Source: Acidobacteriota bacterium
Lineage (GTDB): Bacteria; Acidobacteriota; Vicinamibacteria; Fen-336
Direction of reading: 5' to 3'
Length of the DNA: 42,077 nucleotides
NCBI GenBank assembly: GCA_031369785.1
Contig: JANMPI010000044.1
Coordinates: 1-42,077, forward strand
The notes under the pieces: generated by a model
The model's database searches: none
What the model was told of the DNA's origin: nothing
The model's input: the letters and a program-made list of their open reading frames with translations, nothing else
Made by a program: the position numbers and the translations under genes
Shown here: positions 21,529 to 34,317 of the stretch, one piece after another
Layout of the letters: every line of letters begins with the position of its first letter
How positions within the stretch are numbered: the stretch's first letter is position 1

Positions 21529-22608
21529 GTGGGACGATTGCTGACGGTCGCCAACATCCTCCGGCTTCTCCTCGTCTTCGTTCCCGTCGCGATCTACCTG
21601 GGGCTGACCCACGCCTCGCCCACCTGGGTGTTCCTCTTCTGCTGCCTCGCCATCCTGCCCCTCGCCGGGTTGATGGGGGAAGCCACCGAGCACATCACCC
21701 ATCACACCGGACCGGGCATCGGCGGGCTGATGAACGCGTCGTTCGGCAACGCGGCCGAGTTGATCATCGCCTTCATCGCGCTCAAGGCGGGCGAGACGGA
21801 GATCGTCAAGGCGTCGCTCACCGGATCCATCATCGGAAACCTCCTGATGGTCCTCGGGCTCTCGATGCTCCTGGGCGGCTGGAAGCACAAGGAGCTGAAG
21901 TTCAGCCGCATCGCCGGCGAGAGCGGCAGCAGCATGATGGTGCTGGCCGTGGTCGCGCTGGTGATCCCCGCCATCTATGCGCAGGTCACGCAGCACCGGT
22001 ACCCCGGCCACATCGAGTCGCTGAGCCTCGACATCTCGTGGGTGCTGCTGTTCACCTACGCGGCCAGCCTCGTCTTCTCGCTGAAGAGCCACAAGCACCT
22101 CTTCGCGGGCGAGGGCGACGACCTCGCGGAGAAGGGTCACGCGGAAGGCGTCTGGTCGATCGGAAAGAGCGTAGCGGTGCTGATCGGCGCGGCCTCGTTC
22201 GTGGGCTGGATCAGCGAGTTCCTCGTCCACGCGGTGGGCCAGGCCGGCGCCGCGATGGGCATGAGCAAGGTCTTCATGGGCGTGGTCGTGGTGGCCATCG
22301 TCGGCAATGCCGCCGAGCACTCCACCGCCATCCTCGTCGCCATGAAGGGAAAGATGGACCTGGCTCTCGGCATCGCCATGGGCTCGTCGATGCAGATCGC
22401 GCTCTTCGTGGCCCCGGTGCTGGTCATCGCCGGCCACTTCATGGGCACCCCGCTCGGCCTCGAGTTCACGATCCTCGAGGTCGTGGCGGTGTTCCTGTCC
22501 GTCGGCCTGGTGTCCCTGCTCGTGCTCGACGGGCGCACCAACTGGTTCGAGGGCGTGCAGCTGCTGGCCGTCTACGCCATCCTCGCGATGGCGTTCTACT
22601 TCGTCTGA
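21529..22608 (+). CDS. CaCA-family cation(Ca2+)/H+ antiporter
   Basis: ORF 21529..22608 (GTG start). Polytopic membrane protein with two alpha-repeat signatures, GNAAELIIAFIALKAG and GNAAEHSTAILVAMKG. Confidence 0.85.
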   Translation: MGRLLTVANILRLLLVFVPVAIYLGLTHASPTWVFLFCCLAILPLAGLMGEATEHITHHTGPGIGGLMNASFGNAAELIIAFIALKAGETEIVKASLTGSIIGNLLMVLGLSMLLGGWKHKELKFSRIAGESGSSMMVLAVVALVIPAIYAQVTQHRYPGHIESLSLDISWVLLFTYAASLVFSLKSHKHLFAGEGDDLAEKGHAEGVWSIGKSVAVLIGAASFVGWISEFLVHAVGQAGAAMGMSKVFMGVVVVAIVGNAAEHSTAILVAMKGKMDLALGIAMGSSMQIALFVAPVLVIAGHFMGTPLGLEFTILEVVAVFLSVGLVSLLVLDGRTNWFEGVQLLAVYAILAMAFYFV

Positions 22609-23207
22609 CCGGGACCGGGGGCGGTGCTCGGATGCGGCGGCGGCGCCGCGTTCCCGCCGGGGATCTGCGGGCCCTCGCGTCCGAGGAAGCGCGGGCGCCC
22701 GGCCAGGAAGAGCCACTGGTCGTAATGATCCTGCCCGTTCATGACGCGCAGGCTTTCGTCGGTGTTGGTGCTGGTCACGCCGACGAAAGGCGCGACGCTG
22801 TCGCCGCGGGCGCCCGTCCCTGACCGCGGCTCGGGGCTCGGGACCGGGCGTCCCGGCATCCCCATGCCGGGCAATGCGGGCATCCGCGGGACCACCACCT
22901 CGCCGGCCTTGATGAACTTCCACTTCCCGTCCTTCGCCATCGGGTCCTCGTAGGCCTGGCGGAGGAACTTGCCCTTCACGAGCACGGCGAGGCTCGGGGG
23001 CGGGGCGCCGCCGTTCTTCTTCTGGTAGCGCTCGATGGCGGACGCGATCTGGTCGCCGCGGAAGTAGAGCTCCTGTTCCCGCTCGTTCTGGGCCACGTAC
23101 TTCCAGCTCGGCATGGCCGCGCCCATCAGGATCAGCATGATGGTCATCGCCGCCATCAGCGCGACGAGGGAGAAGCCGGACTCGGACCCGCGGCCCGCCC
23201 GGCTCAC
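22596..23207 (-). CDS. prepilin-type (pseudo)pilin lacking Glu5
   Basis: ORF 22596..23207. GTG 23207 overlaps the SLT stop (GTGA). N-terminal class III signal G/FSLVALMAAMTIMLILMGAAMP has Ala at +5. The following EREQELYFRGDQIASAIERYQ...FLRQAYEDP...W resembles the two upstream pseudopilins. Pro/Gly-rich C-terminus. Confidence 0.7.
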   Translation of the reverse strand: MSRAGRGSESGFSLVALMAAMTIMLILMGAAMPSWKYVAQNEREQELYFRGDQIASAIERYQKKNGGAPPPSLAVLVKGKFLRQAYEDPMAKDGKWKFIKAGEVVVPRMPALPGMGMPGRPVPSPEPRSGTGARGDSVAPFVGVTSTNTDESLRVMNGQDHYDQWLFLAGRPRFLGREGPQIPGGNAAPPPHPSTAPGPGQTK

Positions 23208-33097: not shown

Positions 33098-34317
33098 TAG
33101 ACCTGCTTCTCCACCGCGCTGATCGCCTCGAACAGCGGCAGGTAGAACGCGAGCAGCATGCCGGCGACGATCACCGCCATCAGCACCAGCATGATCGGCT
33201 CGACCAGCGCGATGGCCTTGGCCATGCGGTTCTCGAGCTCCTCGTCGTAGAAGTCGGCGACCGCGGTGAGCATGTCGCCGAGGGCCCCCGTCTGCTCGCC
33301 GACCTTCACCATCTCGAGAGCGAGGTTGTCGACCATCGCCGTGGTCTCGAGCGCCGTGGTGAGGCTCTTGCCTTCGCGGATGTGATGGGTGGCGGACGAG
33401 ATCGCCTCCGCCATGGCGCGGTTCCCCACCGACGCGGCCGCGACGTCCATGGCATTCACCAGCGGAAGCCCGCCGGTCAGGAGCGCGGAGAGGGTGCGCG
33501 CGAGCTGGCTGGTCGCGTACATGCGCATGAGGCCGCCGATGTACGGCACGCGCAGCATCGCGCGGTCGAGGACGATCCCCGATCCCTCGCGGCGAAGCCA
33601 CGTGGCGACGCCGATCCACGCCCCGGCGATCACGAGCACGAAGAGCAGCAGGTGGCCGCCGACGAAATCCGCCATCGCGATGAGGACCCGCGTGATCAGC
33701 GGCAGCTCGACGTTCAGCCCCTGGTAGAAGTCCTGGAACTGCGGGATCACCTTGACCATCAGGATGATGACCAGCGCAATCATCATCACCAGCAGCATGA
33801 TCGGGTAGACGGAGGCGGAGACGGCCTTCTTCTTCAAGGACTGGTTGAGGCGCATGTACTGAACGAAGCGCCGCAGCATCCCCTCCAGGCTGCCGCTGCG
33901 CTCGCCGGCCGCGATGCTCGCGGCCAGCATCGGCGGGTAGAGGGCCCCTTCGGTGCGGAACGCCTCCGAGAGCGCGATCCCCGACTTCACCTTCTCGCGA
34001 ATCGCGGTCAGCGACCGGCGGAAGACCTCGTCGCGCTGCCGCTCGAGGAGGATGTCCAGGGCCTGCAGGAGCGGGAGGCCGGCCTTCAGGAGGGCCGCCA
34101 TCTCCTGCCCGAAGAGGAGGAGCCGGTCGGGGTCGACGCGCGGGCGGCGGAGGCCCAGCTGTTTGAGGCCCATTCCCCGGCGGACGGAGAAGAGGTAATA
34201 CCCCTTCTGGTCGAGGTCGTTGCGCAGCGCCGCCTCGTCCGGAGCGGTGAATGTCTGCTCCACCACCTCGCCCGTCGGAGTCCCCACCCGGCAAACGTAT
34301 TCCATGGCTGTAGCCAA
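33097..34317 (-). CDS. GspF/PilC-family inner-membrane platform protein
   Basis: ORF 33097..34317 (TTG 34317, or ATG 34305). Two T2SSF repeats: LLFGQEMAALLKAGLPLLQAL...SEAF...YPPMLAASIAAGERSG, and TSQLARTLSALLTGGLPLVNAM...TTAL...LALEMVKVGEQTGAL. Confidence 0.9.
   Translation of the reverse strand: MATAMEYVCRVGTPTGEVVEQTFTAPDEAALRNDLDQKGYYLFSVRRGMGLKQLGLRRPRVDPDRLLLFGQEMAALLKAGLPLLQALDILLERQRDEVFRRSLTAIREKVKSGIALSEAFRTEGALYPPMLAASIAAGERSGSLEGMLRRFVQYMRLNQSLKKKAVSASVYPIMLLVMMIALVIILMVKVIPQFQDFYQGLNVELPLITRVLIAMADFVGGHLLLFVLVIAGAWIGVATWLRREGSGIVLDRAMLRVPYIGGLMRMYATSQLARTLSALLTGGLPLVNAMDVAAASVGNRAMAEAISSATHHIREGKSLTTALETTAMVDNLALEMVKVGEQTGALGDMLTAVADFYDEELENRMAKAIALVEPIMLVLMAVIVAGMLLAFYLPLFEAISAVEKQV

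Follow-up and report, generated by a model that had tools for sequence, protein, structure and literature searches.

A compact Vicinamibacteria gene locus that combines features of type II secretion systems and type IVa pili, with apparent relatives in Burkholderiales

Results

Gene content and organisation of the locus

We analysed a DNA stretch of 42,077 nt from an Acidobacteriota bacterium (lineage Vicinamibacteria; Fen-336; GenBank assembly GCA_031369785.1, contig JANMPI010000044.1, positions 1 to 42,077 of the forward strand), which is called the window in the following. It harbours a locus of 13 genes of the type IV filament superfamily, in which components of type II secretion systems (T2SS) and of type IVa pili (T4aP) are found side by side (Table 1). 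A preliminary description, made from the sequence alone, had placed a string of 13 minus-strand genes within positions 22596-34317. Frame analysis based on the G+C content of third codon positions (GC3) and mapping of start codons yielded 13 consecutive minus-strand genes at 22596-34305 in the order that had been described, and profile and structure comparisons confirmed the identities.

The G+C content of the window is ~70%, and mechanically generated lists of open reading frames (ORFs) are therefore full of shadow frames. One such ORF, at 29191-29859, was considered as pilO and was rejected because of its Arg/Pro/Ala-rich nonsense translation and its low GC3; the true gene is the one listed in Table 1. 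For the gspF-like gene, the ATG at 34305 leads to a protein of 402 amino acids (aa), equal in length to the ortholog of a related locus (L001, see below). The G1 pseudopilin gene starts at 29296 or 29305 and encodes the leader MRTEHAAAG/FTYLE.

A 1-nt overlap between gspF and the ATPase gene is followed by a gap of 22-25 nt between the ATPase gene and pilM, and from pilM/pilN onward all junctions are overlaps, i.e. of 4, 4, 11, 4-7, 4-7, 1, 4, 4, 4, and 4 nt. The coordinates thus agree with the earlier count of 11 overlaps of 1-11 nt at 12 junctions, with the gspE/pilM gap as the sole exception. The 11 overlapping junctions argue for a single operon, and the 13 genes form a translationally coupled operon.

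The proteins were compared with Pfam families and with equivalogs, i.e. curated NCBIfam models that have cut-offs. Exact-sequence database look-ups with the ATPase and the secretin of the window gave no match.

Table 1. Features of the locus and of its upstream region, in order of transcription for the 13 locus genes (positions in the window)
Feature	Position	Strand	Length (aa)	Properties
GspF/PilC-like inner-membrane platform protein	33097-34305	-	402	PF00482
GspE/PilB-like assembly ATPase	31472-33097	-	541	PF00437 and PF05157
PilM-like cytoplasmic actin-fold protein	30427-31446	-	339	Profile and AlphaFold2/Foldseek
PilN-like bitopic protein	29849-30430	-	193	Profile match, N-terminal motif
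PilO/GspM-like bitopic protein	29286-29852	-	188	Pfam PilO, T2SSM_b, GC3 frame
Pseudopilin G1 (p1 type)	28823-29296	-	157	G/FTYLE, Glu5 present
Pseudopilin G2 (p2 type)	28434-28829	-	130-131	G/FTLIE, Glu5 present; PF07963
PilP/GspC-HR-like protein	27889-28440	-	182-183	Predicted fold
Secretin	25358-27889	-	843	PF00263, PF00963
Ig-like (Big_1) putative lipoprotein 1 (Ig1)	24552-25361	-	269	Big_1, Invasin_D3
Ig-like (Big_1) putative lipoprotein 2 (Ig2), tandem paralogue	23869-24555	-	228	Big_1, Invasin_D3
SLT-family lytic transglycosylase	23204-23872	-	222	Signal peptide; PF01464
Third pilin-like protein (Pilin3)	22596-23207	-	203	G/FSLVA, no Glu5; PF07963
Sigma-70-like promoter match	34324-34351	-		TTGAGG-16-TAGAAT with TG; within the 58 nt between gspF and the regulator gene
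OmpR-type response regulator	34364-35050	-	228	Response_reg and Trans_reg_C, 99 bits each
Sensor histidine kinase	35061-36599	-	512	HisKA and HATPase_c; kept upstream of the regulator in relatives

Platform protein and assembly ATPase

The GspF-like protein matches PF00482 with 192.6 bits. Its score with the GspF model TIGR02120 (310 bits, cut-off 424) is higher than that with the PilC model (247 bits, cut-off 700), and both values are below the respective cut-offs. Its closest relative in the PDB is PilC of Myxococcus xanthus.

The ATPase consists of an N-terminal PF05157 domain of the T2SSE_N/MshEN type (63 bits) and a Walker ATPase domain (PF00437, 440 bits). The tetracysteine motif that the preliminary description had noticed is present in its sequence (CQHC...CVEC, i.e. 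the CxxC...CxxC zinc motif). The scores with the PilB model TIGR02538 (539 bits, cut-off 675.65) and with the GspE model TIGR02533 (531 bits, cut-off 630) are again below the cut-offs, and by these models the ATPase is equally far from PilB and GspE. Among proteins of solved structure, PilB/PilF of Geobacter, Myxococcus, and Thermus gave 424-405 bits, compared with 362 bits for Vibrio GspE (4pht). Membership in type IVb pili, Tad, or Com systems was dismissed on the ATPase scores, i.e. 129 bits with BfpD, 59 bits with the TadA type, and a partial match below the cut-off with ComGA.

PilM-, PilN-, PilO-, and PilP-like proteins

The PilM-like protein matches TIGR01175 with an E-value of 1e-7, and a profile of 19 homologs matches PilM of M. 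xanthus (7.5e-5) as well as that of Pseudomonas aeruginosa. A structure predicted with AlphaFold2 (AF2) had a mean local confidence (pLDDT) of 85 and a predicted template modelling score (pTM) of 0.82. In a Foldseek search with this model, ranks 1-10 were all PilM (E-values 4e-21 to 1e-17, TM-scores up to 0.72), and cytoplasmic domains of GspL appeared first at rank 31. The protein has 339 aa and no transmembrane (TM) segment, and the PilN-like protein of 193 aa is encoded by a separate gene. As judged from the model, it is a full, separate PilM and not a fusion of the GspL type, in accordance with the T4aP-style split platform proposed in the preliminary description. A 339-aa product, P0001, is 100% identical to it.

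A profile of the PilN-like protein matches Thermus PilN (4bhq) with an E-value of 4.4e-3. Its N-terminus, LNLAxRPFRNERL, precedes a TM segment, and the sequence LNLAxRPF resembles the PilM-binding peptide of PilN. The PilO-like protein has scores of 39.7 bits with Pfam PilO, 27.3 bits with T2SSM_b, and 30 bits with NF040576 (GspM_XpsM).

For the PilP-like protein, the AF2 model has a TM helix at residues 7-25, a disordered Pro-rich linker, and a beta domain with six strands at residues 119-180 and a pLDDT of ~94. The top ten Foldseek matches were PilP proteins of M. xanthus, P. aeruginosa, and Neisseria meningitidis, and the homology region (HR) domain of GspC from enterotoxigenic Escherichia coli, with target TM-scores of 0.37-0.76. 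The sequence profile matched no solved relative, and the link to PilP came only from the predicted fold. The score with NF041515 (GspC_delta) is 20 bits (E-value 3.7e-4, cut-off 150). Neither a domain search nor the AF2 model revealed a PDZ or a coiled-coil domain. For these small proteins, hhalign comparisons with single sequences of E. coli HofM, N, O, and P and of GspL, M, and C gave nothing useful, and tblastn searches of the window with the same E. coli proteins gave no match. The locus contains the separate PilM, PilN, PilO, and PilP set by which T4aP are recognised.

Three pilins

All three pilins align best with E. coli GspG, and the alignments extend well past the N-terminal helix. 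The hhalign probabilities are 96.5% for G1 and 98.7% for G2, over 107 columns each; for Pilin3 GspG is the top match, with 68.6% over 93 columns. With the GspG model TIGR01710, both G2 (53.5 bits) and G1 (23.7 bits) remain below the cut-off of 88.85 bits. The PF07963 scores are 30.7 bits for G2 and 22.4 bits for Pilin3.

Glu5 is kept in G1 and G2 of every ortholog. As had been noticed earlier for the window (G/FSLVA), Pilin3 lacks this residue, and the same is true in nine of nine orthologs. GspK and the PilX-type tip pilins also have no Glu5, and Pilin3 may be regarded as no more than a functional analogue of GspK.

Secretin, Ig-like lipoproteins, and SLT enzyme

The secretin begins with a signal peptide that includes a possible lipobox, followed by a TPR module, an STN/N0 domain, one Secretin_N domain, the secretin core, and, after a Pro-rich linker of ~160 aa, a C-terminal cohesin domain (residues ~700-843, positions 25358-25800). 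The Pfam matches comprise PF00263 (125 bits), cohesin PF00963 (41.5 bits, cut-off 24.1), TPR_19, Secretin_N, and STN/FecR_C, and there is no Pfam match to an AMIN domain. The score with the GspD model (TIGR02517, 142 bits, cut-off 351) exceeds those with the PilQ model (TIGR02515, 106 bits, cut-off 284) and the MshL model (TIGR02519, 104 bits, cut-off 250), but none reaches its cut-off, and the comparison with solved structures ended in a tie between PilQ and GspD. The sequence features suggest that the secretin is probably a lipoprotein. The fused TPR module, which has weak NCBIfam matches, may take the place of PilF, PilW, Tgl, or another separate TPR pilotin.

The cohesin domain is kept in secretins of Acidobacteria (e.g. 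L002 and L014) and in some of the Burkholderiales relatives described below, i.e. Paraburkholderia (L021 16060-18390) and Ralstonia cluster 2 (L022 3559-5838), and is absent from the secretins of Janthinobacterium and Ralstonia cluster 1. Literature searches returned no relevant paper on a fusion of cohesin and secretin, a negative result that does not prove that none exists. When the cohesin domain by itself was used as the query, only short, fragmentary ORFs were retrieved; they derive from short contigs or from an assembly in which the genes of this locus are called in fragments, and they gave no clue to partners. The locus genes are split into many short ORFs in some public assemblies of close relatives (L029, ENA ERZ25039541 contig_46442; L001 13664-16155); for example, the secretin is called as a protein of 229-520 aa and the cohesin as a separate ORF of 120 aa. 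Indel errors in long-read assemblies of high-GC DNA are the most likely cause of the splits, which inflate the number of "cohesin-only" proteins in the databases.

Ig1 has a Big_1 match of 32.7 bits and a match to Invasin_D3, and its N-terminal hydrophobic segment is followed by Cys-Gly-Gly. The values for Ig2 are 41.1 bits (Big_1) and 29.8 bits (Invasin_D3), and it contains the lipobox-like sequence LALSC/GG. The two proteins are 49% identical and represent a tandem duplication at 23869-25361. In the Vicinamibacteria loci, an Ig ortholog is situated between the secretin and the SLT genes; most relatives have a single gene at this position, and L001 seemingly has two. The SLT enzyme matches PF01464 with 104 bits and is 51% identical to the SLT protein of the Paraburkholderia locus.

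Conservation in Acidobacteriota

At least 381 homologs of the PilM-like protein were found, all of them from metagenomes or metagenome-assembled genomes. The related contigs share the gene order, and this extends to the smpB, dehydrogenase, Na/Ca-exchanger, and M23-peptidase genes in the flanks. When species-representative genomes were scanned, 13 loci were retrieved, 13 of 13 from Acidobacteriota, and several are labelled Vicinamibacteria. According to the tblastn table, all 13 genes together with the kinase and the regulator occur in order in the loci L001-L015, and the identities in this set range from 79 to 95% for the ATPase and from 39 to 76% for PilM. The synteny comparison that the preliminary description had recommended thus shows that the whole locus and the two-component system are kept in Vicinamibacteria. 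Gene set and order, kinase and regulator included, are found in ~10 independent Acidobacteriota genomes, which argues for purifying selection on a working system. As judged from the gene maps, the Vicinamibacteria loci have no bona fide GspG gene.

In a more distantly related acidobacterial locus, from Bryobacterales (L016 6712-14142), only the core of gspF, gspE, pilM, pilN, and pilO is kept. This core is followed by genes for a 241-aa protein and for a 530-aa protein with a pilin-like N-terminus, a gene for a TonB-dependent-type barrel lies upstream, and no secretin was found within 10 kb.

Relationship to the "unorthodox T2SS" clusters of Burkholderiales

In tblastn searches, the best matches of the ATPase on annotated plasmids and chromids were "GspE/PulE family" proteins with 51-53% identity. 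They are encoded on replicons of Paraburkholderia, Ralstonia, Janthinobacterium, and Eleftheria and scored well ahead of canonical GspE. For comparison, the identity to E. coli GspE is 40-47% over shorter stretches, and that to HofB is 39%. In conserved columns, the window ATPase is 56-63% identical to the ATPases of the Burkholderiales clusters.

The genes of these clusters are (GspG), GspF, GspE, four hypothetical genes of ~280, 175, 200, and 170 aa, a TPR/secretin protein of 640-776 aa, and then three prepilin-type genes and GspG; in Paraburkholderia an SLT gene is also present. In hhalign comparisons PilN matched the second hypothetical gene (96%, E-value 3.5e-9), PilO the third (98%), and PilP the fourth (87%). 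PilM matched the first one (h1) weakly (E-value 0.009), and there were no off-diagonal matches. The four "hypothetical genes" thus appear to be of the PilM, PilN, PilO, and PilP types, with a weak match in the case of PilM.

The similarity extends to the other components. G1 is 40-41% identical to the first prepilin-type protein (p1) of Paraburkholderia, Janthinobacterium, and Ralstonia, and G2 is 39-42% identical to the second (p2); p1 of the Ralstonia locus L022 has been named "GspH family" by the annotation pipeline PGAP. The Paraburkholderia p3 (G/FTYLG) has no Glu5 and has a C-terminal Y-x-D/Q-W-V/L-F motif in common with Pilin3. In its TPR and secretin parts, the secretin is 31% identical to the Paraburkholderia protein, and the cohesin domains align again. 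The Pfam order TPR-STN-Secretin_N-Secretin is found in all Burkholderiales and acidobacterial proteins compared. A bona fide GspG is present in four Burkholderiales loci (L020, L021, L022, and L023) and absent from the window locus. Because p1 and p2, the orthologs of G1 and G2, occur in clusters that have a separate bona fide GspG, G1 and G2 may be minor rather than major subunits. The two GspG-like pseudopilins of the preliminary description therefore retain their GspG fold according to hhalign, but perhaps not the role of a major subunit.

Neighbour-joining (NJ) trees were calculated with references from E. coli K-12, pO157, Acinetobacter, and a Bacteroidota plasmid, and with three PilB/PilF proteins from PDB alignments; the ATPase tree comprises 374 columns, 300 replicates, and few references. 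The sequences of Acidobacteria and Burkholderiales form one clade, with bootstrap values of 100% (ATPase), 82% (secretin core), and 53% (GspF). In the ATPase tree this clade is apart from the PilB clade of Myxococcus, Geobacter, and Acinetobacter (97%) and from GspE (E. coli GspE and EtpE, 100%), and Thermus PilF adjoins it with 52%. The ATPase of Persicobacter (Bacteroidota), which is 36% identical (~41% in conserved columns), is outside the clade.

These comparisons indicate that the locus belongs to a coherent lineage that comprises the Vicinamibacteria loci and the Burkholderiales loci termed "unorthodox T2SS" clusters in the Ralstonia literature (PMC5080846, PMC6428702). In Ralstonia a canonical T2SS of 12 genes is present alongside the "unorthodox" clusters (PMC5080846), and this coexistence suggests that the two kinds are not interchangeable orthologs. 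No functional study of the Burkholderiales clusters was found in the literature. The window locus and these clusters have in common a single ATPase clade, a collinear arrangement of gspF, gspE, four small M/N/O/P-like genes, and secretin, the pseudopilin triad p1-p2-p3, with a third member devoid of Glu5 where checked (Paraburkholderia), and, in Paraburkholderia, the SLT gene. They differ in the host phylum, in the bona fide GspG, which is missing in the window locus, and in the pilin positions, since in the window the G1 and G2 genes separate pilO from pilP and the third pilin gene is the last of the locus. In addition, the Acidobacteriota loci contain one or two Big_1 lipoprotein genes and the upstream two-component system.

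Two genes adjoining the Burkholderiales loci were also noted. The Janthinobacterium locus is directly preceded by a gene for an 855-aa metallopeptidase of the M4 (thermolysin) type with an Ig domain (L023 5799-8366), and the Paraburkholderia locus is followed by a gene for an 803-aa PKD-domain protein (L021 21958-24369). M4 metallopeptidases are a classic class of T2SS substrates, and both proteins are candidate substrates of the related machines.

Discussion

Comparison with known systems

Neither a canonical T2SS nor a T4aP fits the locus, and its hybrid character is real. It is placed outside the canonical classes because every NCBIfam equivalog score is below the cut-off. With the canonical T2SS, represented by E. 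coli K-12 and pO157, it shares homologs of GspE, GspF, and GspD, a single-operon layout, GspG-fold pseudopilins with the motif ...LP.DPW..., one pilin that lacks Glu5, as does GspK, and an HR-type domain that is expected to contact the N0 domain of the secretin. In contrast to the T2SS, the PilM and PilN proteins of the locus are split and not fused as in GspL, no PDZ or coiled-coil domain was recognised in the GspC-like protein, the number of pilins is three and not five, no peptidase gene is included, and the secretin contains a TPR module and cohesin instead of N2, N3, and the S domain.

With the T4aP, represented by structures of M. xanthus, P. aeruginosa, and Thermus, the locus shares the full PilM fold, equivalents of PilN, PilO, and PilP, the closest solved matches of ATPase and platform (PilB/PilF and PilC), and a secretin with N0 and one N1 domain. 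The differences to T4aP are that the window has no type IVa major pilin, PilT/PilU, PilY1, or minor-pilin operon, that the secretin has no AMIN domain, that the locus is single and compact, and that the ATPase is outside the sampled PilB clade.

Other non-canonical systems have been described. A T2SS-like cluster of Shewanella vesiculosa HM13 (GspD2/E2/F2/G2/K2) exports one protein, encoded in its neighbourhood, to vesicles (PMC6971210). Denise et al. (2019) reported hundreds of "generic" type IV filament systems, reassigned many generic systems from outside the Proteobacteria to the T2SS, and found that the Bacteroidetes "T2SS" clusters with the T4aP and is possibly an independent secretion machine (PMC6668835). 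The generic systems and the Bacteroidetes case imply that hybrid systems are to be expected (PMC6668835). Like the locus, the translocons of Shewanella and Bacteroidetes have a reduced Gsp-like gene set in which unrecognised genes separate the core genes, and they coexist with, or are distinct from, a canonical T2SS. They differ in gene order and composition. Protein export has been shown by experiment for these translocons.

The preliminary description had regarded the locus as an intermediate or unclassified member of the superfamily. This holds in so far as no T2SS or T4aP cut-off is reached, but the locus is not isolated, as it shares a lineage with the Burkholderiales clusters. A well-described clade with exactly this gene order had been named as an observation that would speak against that view; a clade of nearly the same content does exist, but it is poorly described and its order is not identical. 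The locus is a phylum-specific variant of a system type that had already been noticed and is uncharacterised. New in the present analysis are the link between Acidobacteria and Burkholderiales, the PilMNOP assignment of the "hypothetical" genes, the conserved third pseudopilin without Glu5, and the TPR-secretin-cohesin architecture. The TPR module and cohesin of the secretin, the upstream regulator, kinase, and 593-aa protein (see below), and the promoter-like match before gspF go beyond the preliminary description.

A possible protein exporter and alternative explanations

The gene content leads us to favour, with a confidence slightly above even, the interpretation that the locus encodes a T2SS-like pseudopilus exporter based on a T4aP-type alignment complex. 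The histidine kinase and the OmpR-type regulator would switch on the promoter before gspF. The SLT enzyme would open the peptidoglycan, and the secretin, probably a lipoprotein whose own TPR module would replace a TPR pilotin, would insert into the outer membrane. With its HR-type beta domain, the TM-anchored PilP-like protein would touch the N0 domain of the secretin; it would also join the PilN/PilO pair, and the N-terminus of PilN would bind the cytoplasmic PilM. The hexameric, zinc-binding ATPase, together with PilM and the GspF-like platform, would drive the assembly of a short pseudopilus. This chain of contacts, from secretin N0 via PilP/HR, PilN/PilO, and PilM to ATPase and platform, follows the architecture of T2SS and T4aP. 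The pseudopilus would consist of the three GspG-fold subunits, cleaved by a prepilin peptidase encoded elsewhere, and the third subunit without Glu5 would be the tip or the initiator, as are GspK and PilX. Acting as a piston, it would push folded periplasmic proteins or lipoproteins through the secretin. T2SS are able to place lipoproteins such as pullulanase on the cell surface, and the most likely cargo encoded in the locus itself would be the two Big_1 Ig-like lipoproteins, which are thus possibly exported and displayed on the surface. The cohesin, tethered by the long Pro-rich linker, may be a holding site at the channel for cargo or for an accessory protein.

An exporter is favoured because the pilins are small (130-203 aa) and GspG-like and a genuine GspG is present in the Burkholderiales relatives, because the window has no retraction ATPase, because an M4 metallopeptidase (Janthinobacterium) and a PKD-domain protein (Paraburkholderia) adjoin related loci, and because of the precedent in S. 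vesiculosa (PMC6971210). Secretion or display rather than a retractile pilus, as had been suggested before, therefore appears plausible from the genes. Several points weigh against an exporter. The locus has pilus-type features in its split PilMNOP set and in its secretin, which contains a single N1 domain, and the single-sequence scores of the ATPase are somewhat nearer to PilB/PilF than to Vibrio GspE. PilT and the prepilin peptidase could be encoded outside the 42-kb window, and the same could be true for a major pilin, since the bona fide GspG of the Burkholderiales relatives is missing in the window. The trees contain few references and are based on neighbour joining only, and the function of all members of the lineage is an inference. 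Domain searches recognised no dockerin or other cohesin partner among the locus proteins, and the Ig-like lipoproteins, which the Burkholderiales loci lack, may be accessory parts, e.g. a pilotin, rather than cargo.

Alternatively, the locus could encode the core that assembles a true type IVa-like pilus, which would serve in adhesion, twitching, or biofilm formation, with the major pilin, PilT, and the peptidase encoded elsewhere and the three pilins acting as minor or priming subunits. The full and split PilM, PilN, PilO, and PilP, the slightly higher ATPase scores with PilB models and structures, the M. xanthus PilC as the nearest solved relative of the GspF-like protein, the PilQ-like N0 and single N1 domains, and the absence of Glu5 from Pilin3, as in PilX-type tip pilins, are all in line with a pilus. 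T4aP are usually encoded at several loci, and the clustering of the Bacteroidetes "T2SS" with T4aP shows that the categories are fluid (PMC6668835). Nevertheless, we consider a pilus, the main rival of the exporter, unlikely. The secretin has no AMIN domain and is far below the PilQ cut-off (106 versus 284 bits), no pilin of the locus resembles a type IVa major pilin and all align best with GspG, and a genuine GspG is found inside the Burkholderiales loci. Furthermore, the single compact operon is not typical of T4aP, neither PilT nor PilY1 is present in the window, and the ATPase is apart from the Myxococcus/Geobacter/Acinetobacter PilB clade (97% bootstrap). The GspG-like pilins would also fit a divergent but ordinary T2SS with an unchanged mechanism, in which GspL, GspM, GspC, and GspH-K have drifted beyond recognition. 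The GspF and GspD models outscore those of PilC and PilQ, GspM profiles also recognise the PilO-like protein, the PilP-like protein resembles GspC in its HR fold and in its match to the deltaproteobacterial model, and many generic systems from outside the Proteobacteria have been reassigned to the T2SS (PMC6668835).

However, no T2SS equivalog cut-off is reached, PilM is full and unfused and the cytoplasmic domains of GspL rank far lower in the fold search, three pilin genes are present instead of five, no PDZ or coiled-coil domain was recognised in the GspC-like protein, and the secretin has TPR and cohesin in place of N2, N3, and the S domain. Together with the separation of the ATPase clade from E. 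coli GspE and EtpE and the presence of a canonical T2SS alongside the unorthodox clusters in Ralstonia (PMC5080846), this makes an ordinary T2SS quite improbable. Short pseudopilins, PilMNOP, and a secretin are also the core of Gram-negative DNA-uptake machines, and Thermus PilF is among the best solved matches of the ATPase and adjoins its clade in the NJ tree (52% bootstrap). A competence pseudopilus like that of Thermus or the E. coli Hof system is nonetheless the least credible of these explanations and highly improbable, as neither the window nor the flanks of related loci contain ComEA, ComEC, or DprA genes, the E. coli HofM-Q proteins have no specific similarity, and Ig-like lipoproteins in the locus and a protease beside the locus of a relative fit DNA uptake poorly.

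It is also conceivable, if doubtful, that the Vicinamibacteria and Burkholderiales loci represent a separate, ancient branch of type IV filaments that is neither T2SS nor T4aP. The hallmarks of such a branch would be the split PilMNOP, a three-pseudopilin filament with a cap that lacks Glu5, and a self-piloting TPR-secretin with a tethered cohesin that docks cargo or partners at the outer-membrane pore. If true, the branch would be either a living intermediate between T4aP and T2SS or a case in which a pilus machine independently gave rise to protein export, as has been suggested by Denise et al. for the Bacteroidetes system (PMC6668835).

Vicinamibacteria are abundant, barely cultured soil bacteria. 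Genome papers have listed the unorthodox clusters for two decades without study, and the link to tractable, plant-associated Burkholderiales opens an experimental route to the function of the whole lineage. The mixture of a pilus-type platform, secretion-type pseudopilins, and a TPR/cohesin secretin bears on the evolution from pili to secretion, and the fusion of cohesin to the secretin suggests a docking step at the pore.

Upstream regulators and surroundings of the locus

In most Vicinamibacteria loci, the response regulator occupies the same position and has an identity of 84-95% (58% in L015). The promoter-like match in front of gspF is the sole one in the region of 22-39 kb, with 0.8 expected by chance, and its position is suggestive of a gspF promoter. 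In most Vicinamibacteria relatives a gene for a SpoIIE/PP2C phosphatase of ~400 aa lies between the regulator and gspF (L001 5900-7102, L002 5771-7060). The window has no SpoIIE-type phosphatase gene in the 58-nt gap at 34305-34364, and the same is true for L013 and L014. Upstream of the kinase-regulator pair, the window encodes a multi-pass membrane protein of 593 aa (36679-38460, minus strand), which has no Pfam family and a faint EpsG match. It is present at the same position in all Vicinamibacteria loci that reach that far and is a candidate for a further part of the system, e.g. in the glycosylation of pilins or cargo.

The rest of the 42-kb window consists of housekeeping genes. It contains no Peptidase_A24, no second T2SSE ATPase or PilT, no GspH-K, no PilY1, and no type IVa major pilin, in agreement with the earlier statement that GspH-K, a prepilin peptidase, and PilT are lacking in the window. 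The odd composition at 10-15 kb was checked and is due to ordinary genes (GAF protein, UbiA, amidohydrolase). The whole region 10272-20106 has a G+C content of 0.73-0.74 and an A>T skew, and encodes a GAF protein, a UbiA-type prenyltransferase, an amidohydrolase, an MqnC/CofH-like radical SAM protein, and UbiD. It looks like a neighbourhood for menaquinone biosynthesis of the futalosine type, unrelated to the locus.

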